A stretch of 32,000 nucleotides of DNA from Candidatus Electrothrix sp. GW3-4 (GCF_037902255.1 NZ_CP147990.1:810001-842000), one strand, 5' to 3'; shown: positions 1,286-23,339, counted from the stretch's first letter. Numbers and translations are program-made. Notes: generated from the sequence alone by a model not told the origin.

Positions 1286-2536
1286 TTAGGAAGAACTGCC
1301 AAGTGCTTGGATCGGATCCATTGCCGCCGCCTTACGGGCCGGGTAGATCCCGAAGAACAGGCCAGTGAGAAGGGATATGCCCAGAGGAAGGGCGAGCAGG
1401 GGTATGGAAAATCCAATGGGCCAGCCGGTCAGCATACCAAGGCATAAAGAGAGAAGGATGCCGCAGAGAATACCTATAATTCCGCCAATAAGGGTGAGCA
1501 AGATAGCCTCGCCCAGGAATTGGAGGAGGATATGTTCCGGGCGGGCACCTACTGCCCGCCGGAGGCCTATCTCATGGATGCGTTCGGAGATATTGGCGAG
1601 CATGATATTCATAATGCCTATGCCGCCGACAAAGAGGGTGATAGCGCCGATGATGCCGAAGACCAGATTAAAGATGCCCTGGATTTTCCTGGCCTGGGCC
1701 AGCATTTCCAGGGGAATGATGAGCTGAAAGTCATTTACCCCGTTATGGGCCATATGCAGGCTTCGGCGGAGGAGGGCAGCACAGGGTTTGACCTGATCCG
1801 GCTGTTTAACCTCAATAAGGAGCTCGGTCAGGGGGGCTGCCTCCTCGCTGTTGCCTTCCAGGGTGTCCAGGGGAAAGAAGATGCTGTTATTGAGGTTCTG
1901 CATGGTGACCTTGCCTTGTTCCGTATTCAATGCATCCTGCCGGGCAAGGATGCCAATGACCAGGAACAATTGCTCACCAATGCGGATCTCCTGGTTAAGC
2001 TGTCCTTTTTGGCCCAAGCTGATGGCGACCTGCCAGCCCAGTACGCAGACCTGCTGACGGCGCTCTGTGTCAGTCTCGCTGAGAAAGCGTCCCTGTGCCA
2101 TCTGGATACCGAGGATATCGCCATAACTGGCCGTGCATTCCATGAGTCGGGGATGCAGACCTCGGGGGAGGTCAGTCAGGTTGAGGGTCCGTTCTCTGGC
2201 GCCTGCTGTGTTGCGGAGAAAGGGATTATTGGTGCGCAGCCTTTCCCGGTCGCTGTTTTGTAGGCCAGCAGAGTGCTGCTGCTTGGCACGGTGTAGCTGT
2301 TCTTCTGTGAGCTGATCTGCACGGATAAATATATTGGTGATGCCCATCTGCTCAATATGGCGCATGGTCTCCTGCTCCGCCCCTTTGCCGATGGCGATCA
2401 CGGCCACCACGGCCATAATTCCACAGACGATGCCCAGGATGGAGAGGAGGGAACGGAGTTTATGCTGGAGCAGGGAAAGGCAGGCGCTTTTCAAAAGAAC
2501 CCGGGCGCGATGCCCCTGTTTATTGTAAACGGCCAT
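1286..2536 (-). CDS. ABC transporter permease, MacB/FtsX family (periplasmic MacB_PCD-like domain plus C-terminal FtsX 4-TM bundle)
   Basis: This 416-aa ORF has an N-terminal TM helix (LLSILGIVCGIMAVVAVIAIG), a large soluble domain and a hydrophobic C-terminal FtsX-like region (..FGIIGAITLFVGGIGIMNIMLANISERIHEIGLRRAVGA..). It overlaps the upstream ATPase gene by 17 nt. Confidence 0.9.
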   Translation of the reverse strand: MAVYNKQGHRARVLLKSACLSLLQHKLRSLLSILGIVCGIMAVVAVIAIGKGAEQETMRHIEQMGITNIFIRADQLTEEQLHRAKQQHSAGLQNSDRERLRTNNPFLRNTAGARERTLNLTDLPRGLHPRLMECTASYGDILGIQMAQGRFLSETDTERRQQVCVLGWQVAISLGQKGQLNQEIRIGEQLFLVIGILARQDALNTEQGKVTMQNLNNSIFFPLDTLEGNSEEAAPLTELLIEVKQPDQVKPCAALLRRSLHMAHNGVNDFQLIIPLEMLAQARKIQGIFNLVFGIIGAITLFVGGIGIMNIMLANISERIHEIGLRRAVGARPEHILLQFLGEAILLTLIGGIIGILCGILLSLCLGMLTGWPIGFSIPLLALPLGISLLTGLFFGIYPARKAAAMDPIQALGSSS

Positions 2537-3182
2537 TGCGCAGATATCTGGTGGTACGGGCTTGCCCGGCGATTGCAGGATCGTGGGTCACCAGGACCAG
2601 GGTGCAGCCCTGTTGGTTGATCTCCCGGAAGAGGGCGAGAATTTCCTGGCTGCTGTTCTGATCCAGATTGCCGGTGGGCTCGTCAGCGAGAATGAGGGCC
2701 GGTTTGACCGCTAAGGCCCTAGCTATGGCCACCCGTTGCATCTCTCCACCGGAAAGCTCATTCGGTTTATGCTGGATCCTCTGTTTAAGCCCCACTTGCT
2801 CAATGGCCCGGCGGGCCTCTGTCTCTGCCTGCTCTGGCGGGATACTGTTATAGAGTGAAGGAAGGAGGACGTTCTCCAGCACGGTCATGGTGGGCAGGAG
2901 GTGAAATTGCTGAAAGACATGGGCAATGGTCTCGGCCCGGAGCTGGGCCAGCTCTTTTTCCTCCAGTTGGAGGATATCCTGGCCGCGCAGGAGGCAGGTG
3001 CCGCTGGTGGGCTTGAGCAGGCAGCCCAGGATATGGAGCAGGGTGGACTTGCCCGAGCCGGAGCTGCCCATGATAGCGAGAAAGTCGTTTTCCTCGATAT
3101 CCAGATCAACGCCTTGCAGGACCTGGAGACAACCTGAGCCATGTTTGTACTGATGGCTGATGTTACGGGCGGAGATGAGCAT
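2520..3182 (-). CDS. ABC transporter ATP-binding protein (MacB/LolD-type ATPase)
   Basis: Walker A is GSSGSGKST, the ABC signature is [15 protein letters not shown] and Walker B is [12 protein letters not shown], with an H-loop THD. No Shine-Dalgarno-like sequence precedes the ATG in the present context (see findings). Confidence 0.95.
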
Positions 3183-3185
3183 TAT
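3176..3185. repeat. left copy of the 10-bp direct repeat TGAGCATTAT bounding the island; it contains the ATPase start codon
   Basis: An exact decamer is shared with 8910-8919. Its reverse complement ATAATGCTCA holds the ATG at 3182-3180. Confidence 0.85.
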
Positions 3186-3470
3186 GTTGCTGGAAAGCTG
3201 AATGTTATAAATACTTCCGTTCGCAGGATTTCAGTGCGATCAAGATTCCCCGAGCTTCAGGGGCTTTACAGGAATCTGCAGGAGGTCAAGGCAATGTTAT
3301 GAATATTTTTTTTAGTCGGGCGGAATTTTGAATAATAACGCAATGCGTGAATAACGTCAAACGTGATAGCAGTTGATCGCTCAAACTTTGATCAGGGCAT
3401 TTTTTTGTTGCGCCACAAGTGTTTTTACGCTGTATCTCATTGTCACGTTAAGGATTTTTGTGAAAAACAG

Positions 3471-3500
3471 TTGACGGGCACGGATTAACAGGGATATGTT
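3471..3500 (+). promoter_or_regulatory. candidate sigma70-type promoter for the island leader/ROCO transcript
   Basis: TTGACG (3471-3476) is followed by a 17-18-nt spacer and ATATGT/TATGTT (3494-3500). This was matched by eye only. Confidence 0.3.
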
Positions 3501-3673
3501 GCGTTTACCATAACAAATGGCAATCCTTAGTTTAACTGAGCGGGTGCCCTGCTTTCCTGTCGGATCGGGAAGCTGATAAAGCCACAACTGTCGTGAGGCG
3601 GTGTCGGAAAGCCACGGGTCTTCGGGGAGGAGACAGCCGGGTTGCCTGCTTTTACCTGTACCGGAGGTGTGTT

Positions 3674-3772
3674 ATGAGTTCTTTATTTCATTCAAGTACC
3701 TTTTCCAGCTTTATCGGCAGGTCTGTTGACTGTCGTGACTCCTCGTACTCGTTTCTATCCCTCAATAGTTAA
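3674..3772 (+). CDS. possible 32-codon Ser-rich leader mini-ORF (MSSLFHSSTFSSFIGRSVDCRDSSYSFLSLNS)
   Basis: The ATG at 3674 follows GGAGG (3663-3667) after a 6-nt spacer, and the stop is TAA at 3770-3772. Twelve of 32 codons are Ser. It is below the ORF-track size cutoff, and there is no homology evidence. Confidence 0.25.
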   Translation: MSSLFHSSTFSSFIGRSVDCRDSSYSFLSLNS

Positions 3773-3840
3773 TCGGGGTTTGATCCTAATGACCCTAGAT
3801 GGCGGAAAAGGGTATAAGTCCGGTCCAACAGGTAATTACA

Positions 3841-3875
3841 GTAGGGGCGACCGGCCGGTCGCCCCTACAGCGCAC
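3841..3875. repeat. REP-like element, copy 1: GTAGGGGCGACCGGCCGGTCGCCCCTACAGCGCAC (28-bp perfect palindrome plus a 7-bp tail)
   Basis: The palindrome GTAGGGGCGACCGG/CCGGTCGCCCCTAC is perfect. The GTAG head and CTAC end resemble REP elements. It lies 99 nt upstream of the ROCO ATG. Confidence 0.85.
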
Positions 3876-3973
3876 GCCGTGTTAGCATTGGCCCCGGTGC
3901 TCATCGTACATAATGCCCCAAAGGGGCTGTATCTAATCAGCTCAGGCTAACGCCCTGAGCCATCTGTATACCG

Positions 3974-6724
3974 ATGGATAGAGAAGCAATAGAAAAAGAA
4001 CTGGCACAGTTCCCTGGGGAATGGGCTGCGGCTTTTGCTGCCCGCTGTGCTGCCCAATGCCTGCCTGCCTTGTTGGAAAAAAAAGATCCGACAGACAGTT
4101 GGTTTGCCTATTGGCCAGACAAAAAGCGGGATCAGTATCTCTTTGCCGTGTTCCGGGCAAACAGTGTAGCTTCCGCCGTTACAGGTGTCGCCTCCTCCGC
4201 CTACATCAACACCGCCTTCAACGCCGCCATCGACGCCGCAGACGCCTCCGTCTACGCCTCCTACGCAGACGCCTCCGCCTATGCCGCCTTCTCGGCCTCC
4301 GCCGTCTTAGACTCCTTCGACACCTCCGCCTCCGCTGTCAACATCACCGCCAACGTAACCGGCCTAGATATTTCGCAACAGCTTGCTCTTCTCAGAAAAG
4401 CCTGCAACAGCCAAGGCAGTTTTACCGACTACCTGTTCCAGCCCCTCTGGCAGCCTGGGGAGGAATGGTATGAACGCGCCAAGGAGTTTGTCCAGGTTCT
4501 CCGTGAGTATGGTTCCGGCTTTGACTTCTGGGCAGACTGGTACGAGGACCGGCTAGAGGGCAGAGCACCGGACAAGGACCTGCTGGATGCCATCGCCAAT
4601 CTATCATACGAGCAGCTGACTCAGGAACCGGCCCAGATCAACGCCTACCTGAAGAGCCTTGTCCATAAAGAGGACTTGGCCGAAAGCAGCCTGAACCGGG
4701 TGCGGGTTATCTTTCTTGGCTACGGTGCCACCGGCAAGACCTCCCTGATCCGGGTGCTCAATAACAAGAAGGTGGTAGAAGGCAAGGAACCCATGACCGC
4801 TGGCATCGACATTCTGGACTGGAAGGTCCCGGACTCGGACATCACAGCCCATTTCTGGGACTTTGGCGGTCAGGTCATGACCCATGCCACCCACCAGTTC
4901 TTCCTGCGCTCGAAATGCCTGTACATCCTGGTCCTGGACGGCAGGACCGAGATCAACGCCAATGAGCAGGCCGAGTACTGGCTGGATCATGTGCGGGCCT
5001 TTGGCAGGGACGCGCCGGTCATGCTCATCGGCAATAAGGCCGACCTCTGCCCGGTGAATCTGGACATGGCCCGACTCCGGGACAAGCACCCCAATGTGAC
5101 TGACTTCTACCCTCTGTCCTGCACCCAATATCGCGGCAACTATGCCCCTCATTTTCAACGCTTCCGGGCTGACCTGCTCCAACAGATCCTGGCCGTGGGT
5201 ATGCACGGCATCCGCTTCCTCAAGCCCCACTTCACCGTCCTGCAGGAGCTGATCAGCCGTTCCGGCAGGGACTCCTTTCTCCGCAAATCAGCCTACGAGA
5301 ACCTGTGCAAGGATAAGGGCGTGGCTAAACAGGGCGACCTGAACCGGGACTGGCTCCTTGACCTGCTGGACAAGCTGGGCGTGGTTCTCCACTTCCCGGA
5401 CATCGCAGACCTGGACAGCCTGATCCTCAACCCCCGCTGGCTCACCTATGGGGTATATCGCCTGCTCTACTCGGAAGCAGCCCAGCAAGCCAAGGGGCGG
5501 CTCAAGGAGCAGGAGGTCATCAGCATCCTGAGCCGACGGGAGGTGGATGATAACCTGGGCAATCCGCTCAGTTATACCCCGGACAAGGCAGGTATCGTAA
5601 TCAAGGCTATGGAACGCTTCCGGCTCTGCTTCCGCTGCCGCCTGGACCCGGACCTGCTCATTATCCCGGCCCTGCTGGAAACAGACCAGCCTGCCCACGG
5701 CTTTATCAAGGCAGACAGTCTCTGCTTCAGCTTTGCCTTTCAGGGCTTCCTGCCCCGCCATGTGCTGCCCAACTTCACTGTGGCCCGCCATGACGAGATA
5801 GCTGACGAGATGGTCTGGCAGAACGGGGTGGTTCTGCGTGCTGAGGATGGCAGGGCCGAGGCCCTGGTCCAGGCTGATTACCATGAACGCAGCCTGACCC
5901 TGTGGGTGCGTGGCCCCCAGGCCGGGCAATACTTCCGCTACCTGCACCAGGATATCTGCCGCATCCTGCGCCGGATGCCGGACCTGCGCTTCAGGGAATG
6001 GGTGACGGTGCCGGAATCCACCCGTATCAAAGAGGAAGCAACAGACTTTCCCCTGCGGTCAGGAAACAACGGGGACAGCCCGGCACGCGCCGACTTTCGT
6101 CAGCTCCTGGCTATGGAGGCCAGAGGACAGAGAGAGTACATCTGCGAGTACGGGGCCTTTGATCTGCATTGCATCCTCCAGATTATGCCTGCCCCAGCCC
6201 GGCAGAGCTACAGGCAGGAGATGCACGGGAGGGCAGAGGTGTATTATGTGCAGCAAACTATAAACGGAGACAACAATACCTTATCCGCTACCGGAGAGGT
6301 AACACATAGCTCAGTCAGAGCCGGAGGAAACATGGGACACACATACAAGAACACCATAACCAACAGCGGTAGCGGAGAGCAGAACATTGCTCAGGGTGAC
6401 GGGGCTATTGGCAAGCAGGTCAATATCTCGGAAACGAATGCACCGCAGGCCCCGGTAGAGGATCTGCTCAAGCTACTGACTGAGATCAAGGCCCGACTGC
6501 CTGAGCTGCCGGACAAGGCACAGATAAAACTGCGTAATGCTGTGGAAGAAGTCGAGATGGAAGTACAGGAGGACAAGCCGGATAGAGAGGAGATCGCAGA
6601 CACGCTGACCCGTGCTCAGAAGGTACTCAAGGCTATACCCGGTACCGTGGCAGCGGCCCAGTCTGTGGGTGTTCTGCTGGGCAAGGCCCTGATATGGTGC
6701 GGCAAGGCGGCAGGGATGTCGTAG
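3974..6724 (+). CDS. Roc-COR (ROCO) family GTPase, 916 aa, with an Ala/Ser/Asp/Tyr-rich helical N-terminal region and an N/G/T/Q-rich linker plus amphipathic/hydrophobic C-terminal tail
   Basis: The G1 P-loop is GYGATGKTS (nt 4718-4744), G3 is WDFGGQ (4856-4873) and G4 is NKAD (5033-5044). COR-like sequence follows (..LLDKLGVVLHFPDIADLDSLILNPRWLTYGVYRLL..). The C-terminus is ..NIAQGDGAIGKQVNI..VEDLLKLLTEIKARLPELPDKAQIKLRNAVEE..GTVAAAQSVGVLLGKALIWCGKAAGMS. No SD precedes the ATG. The stop codon TAG (6722-6724) lies inside REP-like copy 2. Confidence 0.85.
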   Translation: MDREAIEKELAQFPGEWAAAFAARCAAQCLPALLEKKDPTDSWFAYWPDKKRDQYLFAVFRANSVASAVTGVASSAYINTAFNAAIDAADASVYASYADASAYAAFSASAVLDSFDTSASAVNITANVTGLDISQQLALLRKACNSQGSFTDYLFQPLWQPGEEWYERAKEFVQVLREYGSGFDFWADWYEDRLEGRAPDKDLLDAIANLSYEQLTQEPAQINAYLKSLVHKEDLAESSLNRVRVIFLGYGATGKTSLIRVLNNKKVVEGKEPMTAGIDILDWKVPDSDITAHFWDFGGQVMTHATHQFFLRSKCLYILVLDGRTEINANEQAEYWLDHVRAFGRDAPVMLIGNKADLCPVNLDMARLRDKHPNVTDFYPLSCTQYRGNYAPHFQRFRADLLQQILAVGMHGIRFLKPHFTVLQELISRSGRDSFLRKSAYENLCKDKGVAKQGDLNRDWLLDLLDKLGVVLHFPDIADLDSLILNPRWLTYGVYRLLYSEAAQQAKGRLKEQEVISILSRREVDDNLGNPLSYTPDKAGIVIKAMERFRLCFRCRLDPDLLIIPALLETDQPAHGFIKADSLCFSFAFQGFLPRHVLPNFTVARHDEIADEMVWQNGVVLRAEDGRAEALVQADYHERSLTLWVRGPQAGQYFRYLHQDICRILRRMPDLRFREWVTVPESTRIKEEATDFPLRSGNNGDSPARADFRQLLAMEARGQREYICEYGAFDLHCILQIMPAPARQSYRQEMHGRAEVYYVQQTINGDNNTLSATGEVTHSSVRAGGNMGHTYKNTITNSGSGEQNIAQGDGAIGKQVNISETNAPQAPVEDLLKLLTEIKARLPELPDKAQIKLRNAVEEVEMEVQEDKPDREEIADTLTRAQKVLKAIPGTVAAAQSVGVLLGKALIWCGKAAGMS

Positions 6725-6755
6725 GGGCGACCGGCCGGTTGCCCCTACAGCGCAC
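6721..6755. repeat. REP-like element, copy 2 (34/35 identical to copy 1, same orientation of the AGCGCAC tail)
   Basis: The sequence is GTAGGGGCGACCGGCCGGTTGCCCCTACAGCGCAC. It starts exactly 2880 bp after copy 1 and has a single C-to-T difference at 6740. Confidence 0.85.
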
Positions 6756-6836
6756 CACTTCTGGACATGCCCTGTTGGTGCGGAGACCGTAACCTACGAG
6801 CTGAAAAACAGCATGCCTTCCGTGAGACAAACACGG

Positions 6837-6951
6837 TAGGGTTTGCCTTCCAAAAGGCGTAGGTTTTGCCTGTCAAAAGGCATAGGGTTTGCCTTCCAAA
6901 AGGCATGGGTTTTGTCTATCAAAAGGCGTAAGGTTTGCCTTCCTGATGGGC
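6837..6951. repeat. tandem array of five 23-bp units (alternating A/B subtypes, i.e. a 46-bp higher-order period), each with a GCCTT-N4-AAGGC mini-palindrome
   Basis: The units are TAGGGTTTGCCTTCCAAAAGGCG (6837), TAGGTTTTGCCTGTCAAAAGGCA (6860), TAGGGTTTGCCTTCCAAAAGGCA (6883), TGGGTTTTGTCTATCAAAAGGCG (6906) and TAAGGTTTGCCTTCCTGATGGGC (6929). The 23-bp phasing continues with GGGCACCC at 6948 and 6971. Confidence 0.85.
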
Positions 6952-7073
6952 ACCCCTTAGACACCCTGAGGGGCACCCTTTTGATTCGCAAAAATACTCG
7001 AATTGATCAATGTCTATATCCATCTCTTTCCATAAAGAATAATCATTTCTTATCAGGAGGTTCCCCATGCCGG

Positions 7074-8027
7074 TTGGATACTAATGTCAGAGAGAACAAA
7101 CTCACCACGCCCCCTTCATACTACTGTCAGACAACTGCGGAAGAAACTCTCGGCAATGACGAGGTCGCGGAACTTATTCATACGCTGAATCCGACAATCA
7201 CCACTGCGCAGGCTAAGACGGTTCTGCAGAACTTCCAGCAGGTTGTCACAGAGCAGGTTGCCGACGGCAAGTTCGTCAAGTTGAAGAACTTCGTCTCCTT
7301 CATGCCGCGCCTCCAGGTGCGTCTGGACGTTCCGACCGATGATATTCCGCCTGATGCGGTGAAAGTTGCGGCCAAGGTCCCGAGGCAGTTCAATCGGGCT
7401 GTTCAGAATATAGCGACCTACGAAAGGCTCGGTTATCCGTCCAAGGCCCCTGAAGTGGTCACCGGGTACGAGACAACGACGGAGTATCCCCGCTTTATCA
7501 GGGAAGGATATCCGTTCCGTCTTACCGGGAAATACATTGGTTTTGATGTTGCGGATGAGGACCTGGGAATCTTCCTGGTTGATGCCGATGACAATGAGAT
7601 CGAGCAGGATAAGATTGCCCTCAATGACCCGTCAAAGGTGATCATCACGGCAGACTTCGGCGGGGAGCCTGCTGTATCACCCAATGTGGAGAAGACCATC
7701 CACTGCCGCAACAGATATACCCGGCACGGCACCCTCCGGGAGGGATCATACGAGTACGTAAGGAGTATGAATTACATTGCATCTGATCAGCTTGAGATGT
7801 TTGTTGCCGGTTCCGATGCAACCGGACCTGTTCAGGCTGTGCAGCACGATGCTCCGGCTGAGGACTGCCGCGTTGAGGCCATATTGAAGCCGGATGATAC
7901 GATCACCCTGGCAATCGGGCCGTACACAGGAGAGATGGGGCCTCCTGTTTCCGTTACAGGCGGAGATATTGTCCTGACCGGGCTTGCTGTTGATGTTACG
8001 CTCAATATTGCTGACCAGGATGCATAA
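7074..8027 (+). CDS. HU-like (HU_HIG-type) DNA-binding domain protein with a DUF4469-like Ig-fold C-terminal region, 317 aa
   Basis: This is the frame of track ORF 6843..8027, whose N-terminal 77 codons read through the tandem array and look spurious. The proposed TTG start at 7074 lies 13 nt after AGGAGG (7055-7060). The N-terminus LDTNVRENKLTTPPSYYCQT..DEVAELIHTLNPTITTAQAKTVLQNFQQVVTEQVADGKFVKLKNFVSF follows the HU-fold pattern of Bacteroidota-type HU/DUF4469 proteins as I remember them. The later segment ..FRLTGKYIGFDVADEDLGIFLVDADDNEIEQDKIALNDPSKVIITADF also fits that family. Confidence 0.65.
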   Translation: MDTNVRENKLTTPPSYYCQTTAEETLGNDEVAELIHTLNPTITTAQAKTVLQNFQQVVTEQVADGKFVKLKNFVSFMPRLQVRLDVPTDDIPPDAVKVAAKVPRQFNRAVQNIATYERLGYPSKAPEVVTGYETTTEYPRFIREGYPFRLTGKYIGFDVADEDLGIFLVDADDNEIEQDKIALNDPSKVIITADFGGEPAVSPNVEKTIHCRNRYTRHGTLREGSYEYVRSMNYIASDQLEMFVAGSDATGPVQAVQHDAPAEDCRVEAILKPDDTITLAIGPYTGEMGPPVSVTGGDIVLTGLAVDVTLNIADQDA

Positions 8028-8298
8028 CGATACGCTGTATAACTTCCTGCTGGCGCGAGGACGATATGTCCTGGAGGTCTGCAATATGGATCAGTTCGGC
8101 CGTCACTGATCATCACGGATGTCTGTGCTGCAAAGCCGGAGCGGAAGCACCGGTTCTCTTGTCCCTGTCCTTACAAAATCTTTACAATTTATTTCTTGAT
8201 TAACCCATTCCCTTTATGTTCATTGTCTACAGTGCAGGCATGAAGTAAGGAAACAAGTCTACGTAAAATGTAAAAAATGGAAAATCAAGGAGAAAAAT

Positions 8299-8859
8299 AT
8301 GCAGCTCGATACCCAATCCAAGCTCGGTAGCAATACATTGGCATTACACTGGATCGTAGGCATCATGATGATAATGTTATTGGCAGTAGGTGTCTTCATG
8401 GAAGAAACAAAAGCTTATGCGCTGTATCCTTGGCATAAAGCATTTGGCGTATTGATTATATTTCCTGTTATTCTCCGAGTGGTCTGGAGAATAAAAAGCG
8501 GTTGGCCTCCTCCTGTTCGTGAATACAAAAAGTCAGAGAAAATACTTTCAAAGTTTGTCCATTATCTTTTGCTGATCGGTACGGTGATCCTGCCGATTTC
8601 AGGTTTTATGATGTCAGCAATGGGGGGGCATGGTGTTGAGGTGTTCGGCTTGGAGCTTGTACCCCGAAACCCTGATCCAGCTAATCCGATGGAAGTCGTT
8701 CCATTGAACGGGGCAGTTGCAGGTATTGCCCATGAACTGCACGCTTTAGCTGGCACCAGCATTATCATCGGAGTGATCCTTCATACTGTTGGAGTATTAA
8801 AGCACCATATACTCGATAAGGATGGAACATTACTCCGCATGCTGGGAGCGAAAGTTTGA
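8299..8859 (+). CDS. cytochrome b561 family protein (CybB-like di-haem membrane cytochrome)
   Basis: The 186-aa protein has four hydrophobic helices with conserved His positions (ALHW.., WHKAFG.., AHELHALAG.., LHTVGVLKHH). The SD is AAGGAG, 7 nt upstream of the ATG. Confidence 0.85.
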   Translation: MQLDTQSKLGSNTLALHWIVGIMMIMLLAVGVFMEETKAYALYPWHKAFGVLIIFPVILRVVWRIKSGWPPPVREYKKSEKILSKFVHYLLLIGTVILPISGFMMSAMGGHGVEVFGLELVPRNPDPANPMEVVPLNGAVAGIAHELHALAGTSIIIGVILHTVGVLKHHILDKDGTLLRMLGAKV

Positions 8860-8909
8860 CTTTATACCCGATTCGAACCTTTTTAATGCCTGGGATTGCG
8901 GGTGGAGGT

Positions 8910-8919
8910 TGAGCATTAT
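8910..8919. repeat. right copy of the 10-bp direct repeat TGAGCATTAT
   Basis: This exact decamer lies 10 nt downstream (in minus-strand sense) of the adaptor gene stop codon at 8930-8932. Confidence 0.85.
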
Positions 8920-8929
8920 ATCACCATGA

Positions 8930-10354
8930 TCAATAACCATCAGGGCGCACCAAGAAGACCTGCTCTCCTTTGGCCAGCCCTTCAGTGATCTCGATGAGAT
9001 GTTCGTTGCTCTGCCCGGTTTGCAGACTGCGTTGTTGCACCTCTGTACCGGTCTGAACATAACAGAAGGGACCTCCGTTATCCTGGAACACAGCTTCAAT
9101 GGGTAGGGAGAGTGCCTGAGTGACCTGTGCGGTTTGCAGTTCCACTCGGGCAGACATGCCCGGCCTGAGCCGTTTCTCGCTGGTCTTGAGCGCGAAATGG
9201 GCCTGGAAATATTTTTCTCCAGACCGTCGTCCTTGCTGTTTTTGGGCCAAGGCACCGATAAAGGCCAGTTCTCCCTGGAGGTGGAGGGATGGGTAGGCGT
9301 CCAGAGTGATCAGGGCGGGTTGACCTACCGCGATCTTATGGAGGTCGATTTCCCGGACCTTGCTTTTGACGATCAGGCTGCTCAGGTCTGGCAGGGAGAG
9401 GATGGGTTGATTGATGATGACCGTATCACCCTCCTGAGCGGTCCGCATTTCGCCATTGCGGAAGGCCTCATGATGAATAACCAGGCCGTTAAAGGGGGCG
9501 TAGAGGGTGGTTTTTTCCAGCTCTGCTTCTACCTGGCGCAGGGCTGCCCGGGCTGCTTGCAATTTGGCCTGGACCTGATCCACAGCAGCCTTGGCTCGGG
9601 CAATTTCATGGACACCGGCCTTACTGGTCTGTTGCAGGCTTAACTTGGCATTCTCCACCTTGGCAGTGGCGGTTTCCGTGAGTGAGGGGAGGATGAAGTC
9701 GTGGTACGCTGTATAGCGTCGCTTTGCACTGGCAAACTCTTCTTGAAGGACCCTGATCTTGTCGCGAATGCGGGTCAATTCCGCAGGGTTCTCGTAGCCT
9801 TCCTGTGCCAATTTCTCCAGATCAACCGCATATTCCTGGTATCGTTTGAGCTCCAGTTTTGCTTTGTCTCGCTCATCCCGATGTTGGGCCAGGGTCATGG
9901 GGCCATCTCCTTTGACAAGCCGTTGCAGATCAAGTTCCGCGACCCTGAGGCTGTAGCGGGCGGTCTCGTTTTTATGGCCCACCTCTATCTTTTCCCAGTG
10001 GAGGAGCTGCTCAGCCGCTTCAAGGCCTGCGGTCAGATCGTCGATCTGGGCTGTACATTCGGCAATCTCCTCTTCAAAACGAGTGGGATCAAAGCGCACC
10101 AGGATATCTCCTTTTTTGACCGGATACCCATCCTGGGCAAGAAAAATAATCTTTGCCCCTGGCCCCTTGATACGGGAGGCGACCAAATGGGAGTTCACTG
10201 CCTGGAGGGTGCCGACCGTGCGCACTGTTACCTGGAAATCCCGGAGCGTTGCTGTGGTCAAGGGGGGAGAGTGTCCAGCAGGAGGAGGGGCGTACTGTCT
10301 CAACAGGAATAGCACAAAGAGGGCAGCGCAGAGAAGAGAGAGGAAATATTTCAT
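8930..10354 (-). CDS. HlyD/MacA-family periplasmic adaptor (membrane fusion protein) of a tripartite efflux system
   Basis: The 474-aa protein has an N-terminal TM anchor (LLCAALFVLFLL), a lipoyl-like segment (..VKKGDILVRFD..), a long coiled-coil hairpin and a C-terminal beta-barrel (..RPGMSARVELQ..). Its start overlaps the TolC-like stop by 4 nt (ATGA). Confidence 0.9.
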   Translation of the reverse strand: MKYFLSLLCAALFVLFLLRQYAPPPAGHSPPLTTATLRDFQVTVRTVGTLQAVNSHLVASRIKGPGAKIIFLAQDGYPVKKGDILVRFDPTRFEEEIAECTAQIDDLTAGLEAAEQLLHWEKIEVGHKNETARYSLRVAELDLQRLVKGDGPMTLAQHRDERDKAKLELKRYQEYAVDLEKLAQEGYENPAELTRIRDKIRVLQEEFASAKRRYTAYHDFILPSLTETATAKVENAKLSLQQTSKAGVHEIARAKAAVDQVQAKLQAARAALRQVEAELEKTTLYAPFNGLVIHHEAFRNGEMRTAQEGDTVIINQPILSLPDLSSLIVKSKVREIDLHKIAVGQPALITLDAYPSLHLQGELAFIGALAQKQQGRRSGEKYFQAHFALKTSEKRLRPGMSARVELQTAQVTQALSLPIEAVFQDNGGPFCYVQTGTEVQQRSLQTGQSNEHLIEITEGLAKGEQVFLVRPDGY

Positions 10355-11826
10355 GGGGCCTCGGGACTGTCCTCGCGAGAGGTATTCAAAGCAAGCAGGG
10401 TGCCCATGGCAGCACGAAAGCGGTATCTGTCAGTGATGTAGCGGAGTTCATCGCTCATAAGATCAATCCGGGCCTGTTCGAGTTGGGTCTCTGCTTCAAG
10501 GAGATCAAAATTATCCGCTTCATTATACTGAAATTTAATCTTTGCTAACCGTTGTTTCCCTGTTGCCTGGTGGATTTGTTCCCGGCGGAGGGCAATGCGC
10601 TCCTTGGAGGCATTAAGGGTGTTGAGCACGGTACGCACTTCCCGAATAATTTTTTCCCGGGAGGATTCCAGGCTCAGGCGGCTGCGATTAACCGCCAGGC
10701 GGCTATTGGCCAGGGCAGCCTCTTCTGTAAAACGTGCCCAGTTTGTGCTGCTGGTCAGAGAAAGAGACCAGATATCTTCATCCGGGAGCAGGAAGTTTTC
10801 AAACTCCTCTGACTCTCCCTGGCGGGTGTAGCCCAGTTTGAGCCTGAGGTCGGGCAGGGTGTTCTCTTTTGCCACCTTTTCCTTGCGCAGGGCCTCAGTG
10901 ATATCAGCCCGGCCCTGGGTTATCTCAAGCCGGTGTTGCAGGGCGATCTGCACGGCCTCGTTCAGCTTGATATTGATCAGGGTATATTGCAAAGGGGCCT
11001 CGACCTCTATGGGCCGATCCAGGGGCAGGGCCAGGAGGTCTTTGAGGCGATCAGCTGCCTCAGCCGCGTGTCTTTGGGCGTTGTTCAGCTGCTCCTCAAT
11101 CTTTTTCAGCCGCAGTTCGGCCCGGTAGCCATCCATAGAACGGCCGATGCCTGCTTTTTCCCTGATGCGGGCGGTGTGCAGATGCCCTTTGAGGGGAGGT
11201 AACTGGTCTGCATAGAGATTGACAAGATATTGGGCACGAATCAGGGTATAGACCGCCTGCACGGTCTCCAGCACGGTGTTGATCTTAGAGCGGTGCAGCC
11301 TGCGAGAGGAGGTGGCCAGGCTGTGCTTCCGCGCCAGCACTGTATTGAGGGTCGTATCTCTGCCAAACCCCCGTAGCAATGGCATTGCCAGCGAACAGCT
11401 GATTCCTGTTCCGTAGGCATCATCATCTATTTCCACACTGGGCGCAACCCCGATCTGGATGCCGTTTGGGAATTTTTTCGAGACCTCGCCGCCAACTCTC
11501 CAGACGACCTGCTCTTCATCATTCTCTTCGTCATCAGTGGAGGAGTAATTGATACTGGAGATCGGGGTGAACTGCACAGAGAACCTGTCACGTGCCTCAT
11601 TCAAATAGATCTGGTTGCTGCTCAGGTCAAGGGCGCTGTTCCTGAGCTGGCGATTATAGCGTAATGCCCGGTTGATGGCCTCTTCCAGGGTGAGCTCCGT
11701 TGGGGGGGGCGCTTCCCTTGCAATGGTCCGCGTTGTGGGGAAAAGAAATACCACCGGAAACACCATCAGGACAAAGATGGTCCTGGCATGAAGGGATAAG
11801 CGATCAACGAAAAACAGGCTTTGCAT
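10351..11826 (-). CDS. TolC-family outer-membrane efflux protein
   Basis: The 491-aa protein has a signal-like N-terminus. The typical LTLEEAINRALRYNRQLR.. motif is followed by two repeated coiled-coil/beta halves. It is translationally coupled to the adaptor gene. Confidence 0.9.
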   Translation of the reverse strand: MQSLFFVDRLSLHARTIFVLMVFPVVFLFPTTRTIAREAPPPTELTLEEAINRALRYNRQLRNSALDLSSNQIYLNEARDRFSVQFTPISSINYSSTDDEENDEEQVVWRVGGEVSKKFPNGIQIGVAPSVEIDDDAYGTGISCSLAMPLLRGFGRDTTLNTVLARKHSLATSSRRLHRSKINTVLETVQAVYTLIRAQYLVNLYADQLPPLKGHLHTARIREKAGIGRSMDGYRAELRLKKIEEQLNNAQRHAAEAADRLKDLLALPLDRPIEVEAPLQYTLINIKLNEAVQIALQHRLEITQGRADITEALRKEKVAKENTLPDLRLKLGYTRQGESEEFENFLLPDEDIWSLSLTSSTNWARFTEEAALANSRLAVNRSRLSLESSREKIIREVRTVLNTLNASKERIALRREQIHQATGKQRLAKIKFQYNEADNFDLLEAETQLEQARIDLMSDELRYITDRYRFRAAMGTLLALNTSREDSPEAP

Positions 11827-12168
11827 TACAAAGAGAAGTATGACGTCTGTTGGTAAAATGTTGGCAGAAGTTACGCACGAGACGGGCTCGTTTATGATGA
11901 GATAATATGTTACGTGCGGAGAGGGATGTCGTCAATCGATTTCCTGAGGCAAGAGGAAGAAGGGGGCTGTCTGCGTATCCTTGACGGAAAAAACACTGGA
12001 AAACAGGGGCGCTGCTGTGCTAGAAAGAAGGCTCCTGTCGTTTATTCCAGGTGGTTTGCTCTAACCATGGTACACGGAGAAAGGGCAGAGACGCAACCTG
12101 AAGTTATTTGATGCTGCAAGCAGCGGGCTCTCAGAGCCGGGCTTCATAATACAAAGAAAGGGGAAAAT

Positions 12169-13815: not shown

Positions 13816-14835
13816 ATGGCGAAGCGAAAAGGTATTACTGTCAGTAGACAGATTATGGACAGCCAGCAGACTCACCCTGAGGCAACAGGGGAGCTCACCG
13901 GTTTGCTCAATGAACTCATTGTGGCGGCAAAGATCATCAGTGCCGAGGTTAATATGGCCGGTCTTGCCGGTATCCTGGGCCAGTCGGGTAAGACCAATGT
14001 GCAGGGGGAGGAGGTACAGAAGCTGGATGACTTTGCCAACCGGACCCTCAAACGACGTATGGAGCAATGCGGCTATGTCTGTATTATGGGCTCGGAAGAG
14101 GATGACGGGGTAATCCCGGTCTTGGACGGCTACGAGGGGAAATACACCCTGGCCTTTGATCCCCTTGACGGTTCTTCCAATATTGATGTCAATGTCAGTA
14201 TCGGCACAATCTTCTCTGTCCATCGCCGTAAGAGTACAGGCAAGCAGGGCGATATGTCTGATTTGCTGCAAAAGGGAAGCGAGCAGGTGGCGGCCGGTTA
14301 TGTTATCTACGGCTCCAGCACGATGCTGGTCTACACCACCGGTCATGGTGACGGCGTCCATGGTTTTACCCTTGATCCCAGCGTGGGTGAGTTTTTTCTC
14401 TCCCATCCAGATGTCACCATTCCCGAACAGGCAAGGTATTACAGCATCAATGAGGCCTACTCCCGGTACTGGTATGACGAAACCCGTGCCTACATCGATA
14501 AGCTGAAAGAGATGGATGAGCAGGGGGAGCGCTCCTACAGTCTGCGCTATATCGGTTCGCTGGTAGCGGACTTCCACCGGAACCTGGTCAAGGGTGGTGT
14601 CTTCCTCTATCCTCGGGATAAAAAGAGTACTGATAAGCCAGACGGCAAGCTGCGCCTGCTCTACGAGGCTGCCCCGCTTGCCATGATTGCGGAAGAGGCC
14701 GGTGGCCTGGCCATGACCGATGACGGACGTCGTATCCTGGATATTGAACCGACGGATCTGCACCAGCGGGTGGCTTTGGTTATCGGCTCTCGTGATGAGG
14801 TGACTATGGCGGAGGGGTATTTTAAGAAGGGTTAA
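13816..14835 (+). CDS. fbp: fructose-1,6-bisphosphatase, class 1
   Basis: The 339-aa protein has ..GELTGLLNELIVAAKIIS.. and ..FDPLDGSSNIDVNVSIGTIFS.. and the C-terminal ..GKLRLLYEAAPLAMIAEEAGG.. typical of FBPase I. The SD is ACGGAG. Confidence 0.95.
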   Translation: MAKRKGITVSRQIMDSQQTHPEATGELTGLLNELIVAAKIISAEVNMAGLAGILGQSGKTNVQGEEVQKLDDFANRTLKRRMEQCGYVCIMGSEEDDGVIPVLDGYEGKYTLAFDPLDGSSNIDVNVSIGTIFSVHRRKSTGKQGDMSDLLQKGSEQVAAGYVIYGSSTMLVYTTGHGDGVHGFTLDPSVGEFFLSHPDVTIPEQARYYSINEAYSRYWYDETRAYIDKLKEMDEQGERSYSLRYIGSLVADFHRNLVKGGVFLYPRDKKSTDKPDGKLRLLYEAAPLAMIAEEAGGLAMTDDGRRILDIEPTDLHQRVALVIGSRDEVTMAEGYFKKG

Positions 14836-14924
14836 GGCACCGGGAAAGGGTTAATCCTTTATGGGCGGGCGCGCTCCAGCGCTCGCCCGGATAGCCCCGA
14901 GGGGCAACGTGCTGTCTTTTCCAT

Positions 14925-14966
14925 AAAAAAAAGCGGAAACAAGGCATGGCCTTCTTTCCGCTTTCT
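14925..14966. terminator. shared hairpin terminator between convergent fbp and the 110-aa gene (strong for the minus strand, weaker for the plus strand)
   Basis: A 15-bp stem with one mismatch pairs AAGCGGAAACAAGGC (14931-14945) with GCCTTCTTTCCGCTT (14949-14963). It is flanked by an A8 run on the plus strand, which gives a U8 tract after the hairpin on the minus-strand RNA. Confidence 0.65.
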
Positions 14967-14980
14967 GCTACAAAGAAAAA

Positions 14981-15313
14981 TTAACGGTTTGTCGTGACCT
15001 CCATCTGTTGTGCCTGGATCTGAGCACGGATCTTCTCCATTATTACAGGCAGGACAACAGGCTGGATGCTGCCCTGCATGAAGTTTTGAGGAACACGCTC
15101 TGCCATCATTTTGTTGCGCATTTCATTTTTCAGCAGCAGCGCAGAGAAATTTTGTTTGATCGTCTCCTGCTGCATCTGGGTTAATAACTGATCAACAGTT
15201 GCCTCAATACTTTTGATGCTCTTGCTATCCACCTGCATCGCAGCAACAGCAGGGCCTGACATTATTAAACCAGCAGCCAGTCCGAGTACGAACCTCATCG
15301 TCAATTTTTTCAT
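14981..15313 (-). CDS. small exported Met/Gln-rich protein (110 aa), unknown function
   Basis: This is track ORF 14981..15400. I prefer the internal ATG at 15313, which gives MKKLTMRFVLGLAAGLIMSGPAVAA (a clear signal peptide). It shares the motif KNEMRNKMM with the neighbouring 203-aa protein. Confidence 0.6.
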   Translation of the reverse strand: MKKLTMRFVLGLAAGLIMSGPAVAAMQVDSKSIKSIEATVDQLLTQMQQETIKQNFSALLLKNEMRNKMMAERVPQNFMQGSIQPVVLPVIMEKIRAQIQAQQMEVTTNR

Positions 15314-15448
15314 TTTTTCTCTTGTTATAATTATGAGATAGTTTGCTCTACCTCTTTGGGATTTATTCACTCGCCTTTTTGGTAAAACAGAAAAGTGCAT
15401 ACTCCTATCAGTAGGATGCCGAGGGACACGATGAGTAGAATCATCGTG

Positions 15449-16060
15449 TCAGCAGTTCGGAAGCCTAGGGTTACCAGAGGAACAGGAGGTGTTCTTGAGT
15501 TGTTTTTTTGCGGTGTTATAGTTTTTTTGGGCAATGTTTACCGTCGTTGGCTCAAGCATAAATCTGCTTATCATGAACGGTTGCATCTTTTCCTGAAGTG
15601 GATTGGTGGCCATACGCTCTTTCATCATCCTTTCCTGAACCGAACTCGCCACAATCGGGTCAGAGGATATTACACGAATAGTCTCCTCAATCTTTTTCGC
15701 CATCACTTGGTTGACCATTTTCTGGGTAGCCGCATCAAGCACACTTGACTGACCTGAGATAACAACTTTAATGGGCTGCATCGCTCGGCATTCCATGCAG
15801 GTTTCAACGACTCTTGCCCGCTTTCTGGCCGCTGTATTCTGTTTTACGGTATCACTGACTATCGACATCATATTGTTCTGCATATTCTTGAATACAGTTT
15901 GATCGGAAAAGATATTCTGGACCACATTGTTTATTTTGGTGGCCATTGTTTGCGCCATAAGGTTTTGAGTTTCTTTGCCGAATTCCGATGATATTGCTGG
16001 TCTGGAAAAAAAGATGATGCTTAATGTTGCTATTACGAGAAGATTTCGTCCTCTTTTCAT
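15449..16060 (-). CDS. exported Met/Gln-rich protein (203 aa) with two internal copies of the module found in the 110-aa neighbour
   Basis: The SD AAGGAG lies 8 nt upstream of the ATG at 16060. The signal peptide is MKRGRNLLVIATLSIIFFSRPAISS. Its repeated modules contain ..TQNLMAQTMATKI..KNMQNNMM.. and ..TQKMVNQVMAKKI..VQERMM... Confidence 0.65.
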   Translation of the reverse strand: MKRGRNLLVIATLSIIFFSRPAISSEFGKETQNLMAQTMATKINNVVQNIFSDQTVFKNMQNNMMSIVSDTVKQNTAARKRARVVETCMECRAMQPIKVVISGQSSVLDAATQKMVNQVMAKKIEETIRVISSDPIVASSVQERMMKERMATNPLQEKMQPFMISRFMLEPTTVNIAQKNYNTAKKQLKNTSCSSGNPRLPNC

Positions 16061-16259
16061 TCTGCTAACTCCTTTGGGTTAAAAGGGGCGTTGTTGCCCT
16101 TCTTTTTTATTATTGTTTATGTCTCACTGTAACAGGCAAGGGATGAATGGAAGATTAACGAAAGATTATCAGAAAATTAAACCAAGTTCTTTTTGGGGAA
16201 ATGGCGGGAAAAAAATACCCGCCTCGGTATCATTCGTTGTCAGAGGATAAAAAAAGAGG

Positions 16260-16287
16260 TTTACAATAATGTGGTTGGGTATATATT
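16260..16287 (+). promoter_or_regulatory. candidate sigma70 promoter for the small-peptide/NTase/kinase cluster
   Basis: TTTACA (16260-16265) is followed by a 16-nt spacer and TATATT (16282-16287). The predicted transcript start is about 75 nt upstream of the 79-aa ORF. Confidence 0.4.
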
Positions 16288-16368
16288 ACGCAGTGTTGTC
16301 TTGAAGAAAGGAAGGGCTTGGTCAATATAATTGGCCAGTGCTGGGATGTTTGAGCGGAAGATAAGAGG

Positions 16369-16608
16369 ATGAACGAGCAGAAAGATGGATGTGCCGAGAG
16401 TCAGGTCCTTGGTAATATTGGCGTTGAACAACCCAAAGAAATGACCCGACGGCAGGCGTTAGCTGCTCTGGGAAAATTTGCTGCTTTTTCTGCGCCGATG
16501 ACTATTACCTTGCTTGCTGCCGAAGATGTTTTAGCTTGGAGTCCACCCGACCCTCCCAGTGAAATGCCTATTGAAGAGATTCCTCCTGAACTCATTCCTT
16601 GGCGCTGA
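16369..16608 (+). CDS. small protein (79 aa) with a twin-arginine-signal-like segment and a Pro/Glu-rich C-terminus; candidate precursor/substrate peptide
   Basis: ..MTRRQALAALGKFAAFSAPMTITLLAAEDV.. shows an RR motif, a hydrophobic core and an A-x-A-like site. It is followed by LAWSPPDPPSEMPIEEIPPELIPWR. It is the first ORF behind the promoter candidate. The start is ambiguous between ATG 16369 and the internal ATG of MTRRQ. Confidence 0.5.
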   Translation: MNEQKDGCAESQVLGNIGVEQPKEMTRRQALAALGKFAAFSAPMTITLLAAEDVLAWSPPDPPSEMPIEEIPPELIPWR

Positions 16609-16680
16609 AATAATTTTTTTTCGGGCCTGTTTATTTTGTCTCGTGGTGATGAACTGTGAACTTATCGTTTCTTTGCCTGT

Positions 16681-17739: not shown

Positions 17740-17780
17740 TGGAAGATGTCAAGTGAGCACCTCAAACAAAAAAATGAGTA

Positions 17781-18977: not shown

Positions 18978-19091
18978 CTTTTTGGTTCATATCGCAAAAA
19001 AGATGTTGAAAAATAAGCAGACAACATGAAGTTCATTGGGTATCAGATAAATCCAGAGGCAGCGCTGTGGCTGCTGAGGAGGGGACGAGCA

Positions 19092-20975: not shown

Positions 20976-21102
20976 GTCATCAGCTTTCTGCATAAGCCCT
21001 ATCCCTCCCCCGCTGGGGCGGGACAACACAACATGAAAGAGGGGAGGCCTGGCCAGCTTCGCCAGCCATTTTTCTCTCAGAAAAACAAGGACCGGAGGTG
21101 AG

Positions 21103-21729: not shown

Positions 21730-21737
21730 CCATTCCC

Positions 21738-21947
21738 TAGATTAGAACGATTCTGCACAACAGACGAATGGTTCTGCGGAAGGTTAGAAAGGCTCTGCAC
21801 TGTCTAAGGATGGTCCTAAGATAGCTTCGGATCACTCTGCACTGTTGAAGGATAGCTCCGCGATAGGTACGAGTCGTTCTGCGCAAGATGAGAGCGTTTC
21901 TGCACCGTCGAAGAGTAGTCCTGCTACAGGTTAGCATGGCTCTGCAC
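21738..21947. repeat. strictly phased tandem array of ten 21-nt units with a conserved CTGCAC-type core (an eleventh degenerate unit runs to 21968)
   Basis: The cores fall at 21753, 21774, 21795, 21816, 21837, 21858, 21879, 21900, 21921 and 21942, spaced exactly 21 nt apart. They read CTGCAC, CTGCGG, CTGCAC, CTAAGA, CTGCAC, CCGCGA, CTGCGC, CTGCAC, CTGCTA, CTGCAC. Most units carry a variable 3-4-bp inverted repeat just 5' of the core, such as AGAAcgaTTCT, AGGAtggTCCT or AGCatgGCT. Confidence 0.8.
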
Positions 21948-22347: not shown

Positions 22348-22352
22348 AAGCC

Positions 22353-23329: not shown

Positions 23330-23339
23330 ACTGCTCACA

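Follow-up and report, generated by a model that had tools for sequence, protein, structure and literature searches.

What does a GTPase of the ROCO (Roc-COR) family do in a cable bacterium? The question is raised by a 32,000-nucleotide stretch of DNA from Candidatus Electrothrix sp. GW3-4 (GCF_037902255.1, NZ_CP147990.1:810001-842000; here called the window, with positions counted from its first letter), in which a plus-strand gene encodes a 916-residue protein that is 100% identical to the database protein 'COR domain-containing protein [Candidatus Electrothrix sp. GW3-4]'. Structural work on LRRK2, the kinase of Parkinson's disease, uses bacterial Roco proteins as models, and we know of no bacterial Roco protein with a known biological role; the proposal that Rocos act as immune or death switches rests on domain-architecture surveys. 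The locus is a compact test case: within a single gene, the switch is joined to a candidate sensor surface that is hypervariable and to a module at the C-terminus. From sequence comparison and analogy, we assign a probability of about 0.5 to the reading that the protein is a GTPase switch resembling a nucleotide-binding leucine-rich repeat receptor (NLR), fused to a regulated effector module, and thus a candidate switch for cell suicide or immunity. The original prediction, made from the DNA of this stretch, had proposed an NTPase-based conflict or defence protein carried as island cargo. The gene and its parts are as follows.

3974..6724, plus strand: ROCO gene, 916 aa, comprising the N-terminal helical domain, Roc, COR-A, COR-B, the shared motif and the four-helix bundle
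3974..4702, plus strand: N-terminal helical domain, aa 1-243, all-helical and specific to this ROCO subfamily
4160..4363, plus strand: hypervariable insert, aa ~63-130, rich in Ala/Ser/Tyr/Asp, with cryptic repeats of 12, 21 and 27 nt
4703..5044, plus strand: Roc G domain, aa 244-357 (Pfam E-value 3e-22), with P-loop K255, DFGGQ and NKAD
5228..6148, plus strand: COR-A (aa 419-568, Pfam E-value 2.5e-22) and COR-B (aa 583-725, Pfam E-value 2.8e-18)
6323..6334, plus strand: internal start, a Shine-Dalgarno (SD)-like GGAGGA followed by AAC and ATG (Met787), in frame within the ROCO open reading frame (ORF)
6350..6424, plus strand: shared motif, aa 793-817, 25 aa, Gly/Asn/Gln-rich, NTITNSGSGEQNIAQGDGAIGKQVN
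6455..6712, plus strand: four-helix bundle, aa ~828-913, whose last helix is Gly/Ala-rich and ends ...GKALIWCGK

By sequence comparison, membership of the ROCO family is secure, because Pfam matches to Roc, COR-A and COR-B, intact G motifs and matches to solved structures all support it. The ORF and its assignment as a 916-aa Roc-COR GTPase were confirmed at the exact coordinates first proposed, and the three G motifs stand where they had been read: GYGATGKTS at 249-257 (G1, with K255 as the P-loop lysine), WDFGGQ at 295-300 (G3) and NKAD at 354-357 (G4). COR-A and COR-B lie directly C-terminal of Roc, and the match to the Chlorobium tepidum Roc-COR structure spans aa 218-681. The nearest solved structures by sequence are Methanosarcina barkeri Roco (4WNR, E-value 1e-61), C. 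tepidum Roco (3DPU/6HLU/8R4B, ~1e-51) and LRRK2 (4e-16). In C. tepidum Roco and LRRK2, Roc-COR is a nucleotide-dependent switch that governs self-association, and the conservation of motifs predicts GTP binding and hydrolysis coupled to a dimer-monomer cycle in the window protein. Its NTPase is a Ras-like Roc domain (Pfam) and not a P-loop ATPase of the signal transduction ATPases with numerous domains (STAND) class, such as NACHT, NB-ARC or Avs; the protein may work like an NLR, yet it stands outside the family of NLR-like STAND ATPases. A database search returned more than 1400 ROCO homologues, at least two paralogues being present in the GW3-4 genome itself, and the family is prominent in cable bacteria, Beggiatoa, methanotrophs, Gallionella and Nitrosomonas.

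The evidence that carries our reading lies at the C-terminus. An Asn/Gly/Thr/Gln-rich 'low-complexity linker' had been proposed here; an Asn/Gly/Gln-rich segment does occupy aa 793-817, but it is a conserved shared motif and not a linker. It contains 5 Gly, 4 Asn, 3 Gln, 3 Ile, 1 Val and 1 Lys, with no Pro and no Leu. An AlphaFold2 model of aa 787-916 left the first 39 residues disordered and folded the remainder into a four-helix bundle (pLDDT, predicted local distance difference test score, ~85; helices at 42-58, 61-78, 85-100 and 107-127 of the 130-aa fragment), the Gly/Ala-rich last helix spanning 890-916 with the end sequence VGVLLGKALIWCGK. Just ahead of the motif, the internal SD-ATG is identical in the orthologue at locus L006 and in the standalone gene at locus L138 (CGGAGGAAACATGGGACAC), and Met787 is the exact start point of the standalone small-protein genes described below (MGHTY(N)NT...), such that, judging from these starts, a free product of 130 aa might be made from the ROCO gene in addition to the 916-aa fusion. 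Literature reports of HEPN domains fused to AbiTii homologues led us to check the module for an HEPN RNase (Rx4-6H), which was rejected: there is no His in aa 826-916 and no conserved His/Arg column in the module family. As a separate observation, positions 33-76 of the module profile (window aa ~827-864) matched the small terminase subunits 4XVN and 6V1I with an E-value of 8e-5 over 44 helical residues, which is probably a similarity of helix composition.

The same module is encoded elsewhere as a free protein. A search with aa 762-916 returned 64 proteins, mostly standalone, of 119-142 aa and cable-bacterial origin, with 60-80% identity to the ROCO tail. At 5 of the 7 loci examined (L001, L008, L009, L011 and L139), the free gene lies upstream of a gene for an NB-ARC-TPR or TPR-only protein that bears the same ~25-aa motif at its N-terminus. 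A gene for a 684-aa NB-ARC + TPR protein begins 170 nt beyond the free gene in Ca. E. communis, and the motif of the small protein (NSGSGEQNFAQGDGAIAKQVN) recurs at the N-terminus of the larger one (MDNRFENKGKDQNVAQGDGAIGKQIN); in E. laxa, Desulfobulbus sp. F5 and a JGI metagenome contig, the next gene encodes a TPR-only protein of ~435 aa whose N-terminus bears this motif as well (TPR-only partners: L008, L009, L011 and L139). A DUF2281-PIN toxin-antitoxin pair lies between the small gene and the TPR partner in Electronema halotolerans, and no partner adjoins the free gene in E. aestuarii. The partners have only the 25-aa motif in common with the free protein, not the bundle. A hidden Markov model (HMM) built from the five partner N-termini (TPR and NB-ARC-TPR) matched aa 793-817 of the ROCO protein with an E-value of 2e-12 and nothing else in a six-frame translation of the 32-kb window, so no motif partner is encoded there: the pairing through a shared motif holds for the standalone homologues at five loci, whereas in the window the module is fused to ROCO instead. 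A second motif copy at aa 762-786 was considered and rejected, as the partner-side HMM had no match in that segment and the conservation with standalone genes starts just upstream of the internal SD-ATG.

How free and fused copies are related is indicated by L138 (760-1266, Desulfobulbus sp. TB), where an out-of-frame relic of the ROCO COR-B end (LLALEGVGETRYICADGVFDLRCILQIMP; LLALEGVGETRYICADGVFDLRCILQIMPVQARQY) lies directly upstream of a free copy, with a TPR gene further upstream of the relic. The relic is evidence that a decaying ROCO fusion can leave a free copy behind, and sequence comparison indicates that fusion and fission both occur. In five further proteins (P0212, P0230, P0243, P0251 and P0263) we observed two copies of the motif, one at the extreme N-terminus and of the partner type (MDNxF...) and the other ~130 residues on, ahead of the helical module; these proteins may be partner-effector fusions or pseudo-repeat architectures.

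A profile search of 1.84 billion representatives returned 267 members of the module family. Many are free proteins of 100-150 aa, and in all the longer ones the module is C-terminal, preceded by pentapeptide repeats, CHAT, caspase, PNP_UDP, TIR, HNH, a dCTP-deaminase-like domain (DCD), EAD8, HetE-N or AbiTii. PDC-M14B, a component of the PADLOC candidate system PDC-M14, was matched by 25 of the 42 long members scanned. The ROCO tail alone matched it with an E-value of 1.1e-8 over profile positions 154-259 of 267 only, that is, the C-terminal ~105 positions of PDC-M14B, its N-terminal part being absent from the window protein; the literature searched held no mention of PDC-M14. Among the islet proteins scanned with PADLOC (ROCO and HU-like), the HU-like protein had no match. 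We tie the C-terminal module to conflict systems because of the PDC-M14B match, the motif-sharing NB-ARC-TPR/TPR pairs, the enzyme fusions and the TIR and transmembrane (TM) tails of paralogues.

A link to AbiT, an experimentally shown two-gene abortive-infection system of lactococci (PMC13064643), is weak and transitive as far as the sequences indicate. AbiTii-fused members of the family also match PADLOC AbiTi in the module region (P0301, 1.7e-4; P0240, 3.4e-5). The window protein differs from AbiT in that it has neither a direct AbiTi match nor an AbiTii partner: the window tail and nine standalone or short module proteins had no AbiTi match even at E-values up to 10, and AbiTii was not found in the window protein by Pfam and PADLOC scans. 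Single proteins of ~290 aa that combine AbiTii with an AbiTi/PDC-M14B-like region (the P0301 type) were observed in 148 plasmid records, all annotated as hypothetical, from hosts that include Aeromonas, Klebsiella, Vibrio and Pseudomonas (e.g., NZ_CP064043.1, 55490-56359).

Among ROCO paralogues, the position that follows COR-B is, by sequence comparison, an effector slot. It is filled by TIR in P0036, P0040, P0047 and P0069, by multi-TM tails with hydropathy >2.0 in P0016 and P0033, and in most paralogues by a divergent version of the module, in which a Gly/Asn-rich beta-like stretch is followed by helices with LPxLP and KxxP landmarks (hhalign of the window bundle against these C-terminal modules: probability 94.7%, E-value 6e-8). 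Since the paralogues mostly carry this divergent version, the window lineage has swapped an ancestral, more divergent tail for the variant that circulates as an NLR- or TPR-paired free gene.

At the other end of the protein, the N-terminal ~240 aa had been described as unusual; they are instead the norm of a large ROCO subfamily. Of the 120 best homologues, 117 have them conserved, and the taxa represented are cable bacteria, Beggiatoa, Methylovulum, Methylomonas, Gallionella, Nitrosomonas and Massilia. Both features singled out earlier in this region are present: the W/Y-rich segment at aa 182-196 is the strongest conserved N-terminal motif (GFDxWADWYxDRLxG, with FDFWADWYEDRLEG at aa 183-196), and the cryptically repetitive Ala/Ser/Asp/Tyr stretch occupies aa 75-111 (nt 4196-4306, with DNA periods of 12, 21 and 27 nt at 4204-4289). 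An AlphaFold2 model of the domain (29 sequences) was wholly helical, with 14 helices, a pLDDT of 86 and a predicted TM-score (pTM) of 0.84. The domain had no Pfam family and no PDB sequence-profile match, Foldseek gave no match in the PDB (best E-value 0.7, TM-score <0.25), and a profile search with the N-terminal alignment returned 2 matches only, Ala-rich words having saturated the candidate list. We regard it as a candidate sensor or regulatory domain.

Within this domain, the insert is hypervariable. Among four orthologues it shows 3-18% identity (over aa ~68-130) and differs in length by up to ~40 aa, whereas most other 30-residue windows are 80-100% identical. The ratio of nonsynonymous to synonymous substitution rates (dN/dS), computed between the window gene and the L006 orthologue, which have equal insert lengths, with codons aligned without gaps, was ~1.56 in the insert against 0.09-0.34 in the rest of the gene. 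The insert is also the least confident part of the N-terminal model (pLDDT 60-80). By analogy with the 'rapidly evolving LRRs' (leucine-rich repeats) of AP-GTPase proteins described by Kaur et al. (PMC8195603), it could be a diversifying recognition surface. An origin by a diversity-generating retroelement was rejected, there being no template-like repeat elsewhere in 3100-8400.

The gene is carried by an insertion, whose extent and surroundings are given here.

3186..8893, no strand assigned: inserted islet of 5.7 kb, with the ROCO, HU-like and cytochrome b561 genes, all on the plus strand
8299..8859, plus strand: cytochrome b561 gene, the third islet gene (Pfam Ni_hydr_CYTB, 4e-28)
10351-11826, minus strand: TolC-like gene, part of the operon on one side of the islet
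8930-10354, minus strand: HlyD gene, part of the operon on the same side
2520-3182, minus strand: ABC ATPase gene, part of the operon across the islet from HlyD
1286-2536, minus strand: MacB/FtsX permease gene, part of the operon across the islet from HlyD

The islet interrupts a minus-strand efflux operon between TolC-HlyD and ABC-ATPase-MacB. The window DNA aligns with that of another Electrothrix (L013) over 8894-12046 and 2889-3185, homology stopping at 3185 and 8894; in L013, HlyD (10001-11434) is followed after a gap of 20 nt by the ABC ATPase gene at 11455, and the same operon is uninterrupted in a Myxococcota locus (L017). The operon being contiguous in L013 and homology breaking at 3185/8894, 3186-8893 is an insertion, and the 'inserted islet' proposed earlier is thereby established. 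At the same site in Ca. Electrothrix marina (L016, 8266-10300), the HlyD gene is followed by small HicB-like, BrnT-like and nucleotidyltransferase (MNT-like) genes and no ROCO islet; given this different cargo, the site after HlyD is a variable hotspot, and the ROCO gene is cargo of an insertion at a variable site. Two short stretches of the window (6945-6981 and 8052-8111) are conserved in the L016 site, which suggests a recombination hotspot with common junction sequences. There are no tRNA genes in the 32-kb window.

At the homologous loci that were read, ROCO genes of the subfamily are solitary, without a conserved operon partner. Toxin-antitoxin pairs adjoin 3 of the 4 other loci (ParE at L006, UPF0175/DUF3368 at L140 and HipA in Beggiatoa, L141), the exception being the paralogue P0013, which adjoins hydrogenase genes.

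Compared with CtRoco, M. barkeri Roco2, LRRK2 and DAPK1, the window protein has the same succession of Roc and COR-A/COR-B and intact G1/G3/G4 motifs, whereas it is without LRR, ankyrin, kinase and WD40 domains (Pfam) and has a helical N-terminus with a hypervariable insert and, at its C-terminus, the motif and four-helix bundle common to free small proteins. Kaur, Iyer, Burroughs and Aravind (eLife 2021; PMC8195603) described AP-GTPase-COR conflict systems with variable C-terminal effectors, a computational prediction, and found these systems enriched in multicellular prokaryotes; the earlier statement that Roc-COR proteins had been predicted computationally to be conflict sensors agrees with this publication. 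As compared with those systems, the window protein shares the Roc-COR switch and the variable C-terminal effector slot, TIR included, but has no LRR in the Pfam scan, its N-terminal domain with the insert standing instead. As the original prediction had also held for bacterial ROCO proteins, the literature searched contained no experimental antiphage or defence role for any ROCO protein.

A second likeness is with amyloid signalling. Dyrka et al. (2020) described BASS motifs in NLR-associated amyloid signalling, enriched in Gln/Asn/Gly/Val/Ile and depleted in Lys/Pro/Leu, a bias that the composition of the window motif fits; amyloid signalling was shown experimentally in the E. coli Bab/Agp antiphage system by Ibarlosa et al. 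(2024; 10.1101/2024.11.07.622273). In common with Bell/BASS plus NB-ARC/NACHT, Bab/Agp and the fungal HET-S/NWD2 pair, the module genes have a ~25-aa Gly/Asn/Gln-rich motif that a small helical protein shares with the N-terminal end of the NB-ARC-TPR or TPR protein encoded next to it; the hosts are likewise filamentous and multicellular, and fused 'all-in-one' and two-gene versions coexist. The fused receptor here is a ROCO GTPase, whereas in known pairs it is a STAND ATPase or a TPR-GreA/B-C-PIN (TGP) protein. Already known, then, are the idea of a bacterial Roc-COR conflict switch (a prediction; PMC8195603) and bacterial NLR-associated amyloid signalling (published). Relative to the papers compared, the new elements are an N-terminal domain of the subfamily that has a hypervariable insert where LRRs would stand, the network of motif-plus-bundle modules (ROCO tails, free genes paired with NB-ARC-TPR/TPR, and enzyme fusions), an orientation that mirrors that of Bell, and a pair of this kind in which a ROCO GTPase takes the receptor position.

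We infer sensing, assembly driven by the motif, toxicity, targeting of a membrane and a role in defence, and these could be joined into the following mechanism. The N-terminal helical domain, with its fast-evolving Ala/Ser/Tyr-rich surface, would be the ligand-sensing or autoinhibitory part, the Roc-COR core would be the nucleotide switch governing self-association, and the ~25-aa Gly/Asn/Gln-rich, putatively beta-prone motif together with the four-helix bundle would form the output module, present in cis with the ROCO switch in the window lineage (an 'all-in-one' architecture) and as a free protein of ~125 aa in other cable bacteria. Infection or another non-self cue would cause the ROCO protein to cluster and bring the motifs together; these would associate homotypically, perhaps as cross-beta, and their association would release or remodel the bundle to give a toxic output. 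The likeliest output would be perturbation of a membrane through the Gly/Ala-rich last helix, a membrane-active output being favoured because HET-S, Bell and Bab offer an analogy and some paralogues end in TM tails. The signalling cell would be killed or arrested, which would protect its clonemates in the multicellular filament. Speculatively, the internal ribosome-binding site and ATG may supply free module that would be nucleated by the fusion protein. A more specific version makes the ROCO GTPase the receptor of a prion-like cascade, in which GTP-controlled clustering would turn the motif into a templating fold and activate a mirror-image HeLo-like four-helix executioner, supplied in cis and as the free 130-aa protein, with the hypervariable insert as the recognition surface; we consider this version, taken whole, a decidedly long shot.

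Several results weigh against an effector module of this kind and against a defence role. The monomer model leaves the motif disordered (pLDDT <50) and gives it no structure, and covariation of the motif within pairs was not significant (49/120 permutations, n = 5 pairs). Structural matches of the bundle in PDB and BFVD were generic four-helix bundles only (E-value >0.2); there was no Bell or HeLo Pfam match, and Bab was not among the PDB structure matches for the module. In both the window and the free module, the motif is N-terminal and the hydrophobic helix is at the extreme C-terminus, the mirror image of Bell, HeLo and Bab. The maximum 19-residue Kyte-Doolittle hydropathy in the tail is 1.51, which makes the last helix borderline hydrophobic; a classical C-terminal transmembrane anchor was rejected on this value, and of the membrane-inserting terminal segment proposed earlier, the Gly/Ala-rich helix is present but at this hydropathy argues only faintly for insertion. 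The insert could equally be a slippage-prone, tolerant low-complexity region. The viral contig collection held no relative of the ROCO protein or the module. No canonical defence system (restriction-modification, CRISPR, CBASS or the like) is adjacent in the window or in five homologue contexts; the neighbourhood comparison suggested by the original prediction gave mostly toxin-antitoxin pairs nearby but none of these. Its idea of a defence protein thus keeps the islet cargo and the conflict-linked module, but not an adjacent defence system, and the function itself is one that we infer.

The main rival is that the module acts as an effector-associated, Death-like homotypic adaptor, recruiting module-bearing caspase, CHAT, TIR, HNH or pentapeptide-repeat proteins or the free proteins. 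Fusion of a module to many effector-type domains plus an NTPase core is the published definition of an effector-associated domain (EAD; PMC8195603), the module is predicted to be small and helical, and the fusion partners caspase, TIR and HNH are themselves effectors, a further point against our reading in that they fit an adaptor as well as an effector. The cable-bacterial copies are also unusually alike: free proteins match the ROCO tail at 70-80% identity, compared with 64% when the N-terminal domains of orthologues are aligned. However, the NB-ARC-TPR or TPR partner has the motif only, and therefore the free 125-aa protein has no other candidate output domain; moreover, the EAD8-module and HetE-N-module fusions put the module in the effector position, and no Pfam EAD family matches it. 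We hold the adaptor unlikely. Much the same doubt attaches to a housekeeping or developmental GTPase of filamentous bacteria (for differentiation, filament breakage or envelope organisation), whose tail would be a localisation device or tether and whose presence in the islet would be incidental. The size and distribution of the family and the paralogues in the genome speak for such a role, as do the absence of adjacent canonical defence genes, the hydrogenase genes beside P0013 and the fact that no defence role is known for those bacterial Roco proteins whose biochemistry has been studied. It sits poorly with a variable presence at a hotspot where another species has toxin-antitoxin genes, a hypervariable insert within an otherwise strongly constrained protein, tails exchanged for TIR or TM modules, and a module linked to NB-ARC partners, to caspase, CHAT, TIR, HNH and AbiTii fusions and to PDC-M14B.

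Finally, the fusion might be decaying or accidental, the product of read-through into a neighbouring small gene, with no integrated function or with only the internal small ORF functional. The internal SD-ATG is intact, the L138 relic of a ROCO 3' end lies upstream of a standalone copy, and the junction at aa 762-791 is only 49% conserved, all of which would suit such an accident; yet P0001-P0005, five proteins that come from independent assemblies, have the fusion intact, dN/dS values of 0.14 in the motif and 0.34 in the bundle indicate purifying selection in the fused state, and a homologous module stands at the same place across the ROCO subfamily. We consider an accident very improbable. 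The regulated effector module fused to a GTPase switch is the reading we retain.

Repeats and a second gene of the islet adjoin the ROCO gene.

3841..3875, plus strand: REP-like (repetitive extragenic palindromic) palindrome, copy 1, a perfect 28-nt palindrome (GTAGGGGCGACCGGCCGGTCGCCCCTAC) plus 7 nt (AGCGCAC), 99 nt before the ROCO start
6721..6755, plus strand: REP-like palindrome, copy 2, the 28-nt palindrome plus 7 nt, overlapping the TAG stop of the ROCO gene
6836..6951, plus strand: tandem repeats, ~5 units of 23 nt (TAGGGTTTGCCTTCCAAAAGGCR), between the ROCO and HU-like genes
7074..8027, plus strand: HU-like/DUF4469 gene, 317 aa, with a DUF4469 Ig-like domain (Pfam HU-DNA_bdg, HU-HIG and DUF4469)

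The original prediction had described the islet as flanked by palindromic repeats. Two copies are indeed present, but they enclose the ROCO gene only and do not mark the islet ends. The palindrome (GTAGGGGCGACCGGCCGGTYGCCCCTAC; window 3841-3868 and 6721-6748), which starts with GTAG, occurs exactly in at least 120 metagenome contigs, in some of them twice (loci L018-L097 and further, from many samples), and also upstream of the ROCO orthologue in L006 (2042-2069), where the orthologue is 86% identical and the genomic location is different. Palindromes as borders of a mobile unit were therefore rejected, the islet ending at 3185/8894 and the palindrome being dispersed. It is a dispersed REP-like hairpin, of which the copy over the stop codon may be a terminator or stabiliser.

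Each 23-nt unit of the tandem array comprises a 6-bp hairpin and then a T-rich run; the core TTTGCCTNNCAAAAGGC has 4 copies in the array and, elsewhere in the window, one match with 2 mismatches (0.16 expected by chance). A stack of terminators is one possible role for the units, and binding sites, e.g., for the HU-like protein, are another. The TTG at 7074 is the probable start of the HU-like gene, given AGGAGG at 7055-7060 and comparison with the L006 homologue; a longer ORF call from a TTG at 6843 (6843-8027) runs across the tandem repeats. An HU-like homologue, 27% identical, lies near the ROCO orthologue in L006 and near no other homologue read. The neighbouring DNA-binding gene noted earlier is thus real, as an HU-like/DUF4469 gene that follows ROCO, but its linkage is seen at two loci only.

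A second insertion of ~8.5 kb, relative to Electrothrix L013 and L016, was observed at ~14832-23338 of the window, where G+C is low (0.42-0.48). Its genes include those for an NTP_transf_5 protein and for a 649-aa protein with FG-GAP repeats, besides several ORFs without a Pfam match, and it is flanked by a cluster of small hairpins (23215-23330) that recurs in L006 (three copies) and L004.

If our reading of the ROCO protein is true, motif-templated (amyloid-like) death signalling would extend from STAND NLRs to Ras-like GTPases, and the module would be a new and widespread effector or adaptor, with 267 representative clusters and fusions to caspase, CHAT, TIR, HNH and AbiTii. For the cable bacteria, it would mean regulated cell death, in which the sacrifice of one cell of a conductive filament affects the whole organism. 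Were the prion-like cascade also true, no earlier amyloid-type signalosome would have had a small GTPase in place of a STAND ATPase as its switch, and a bacterial ROCO protein would have its first assigned role. If the reading is false, the hypervariable insert and the module network would still need explaining.

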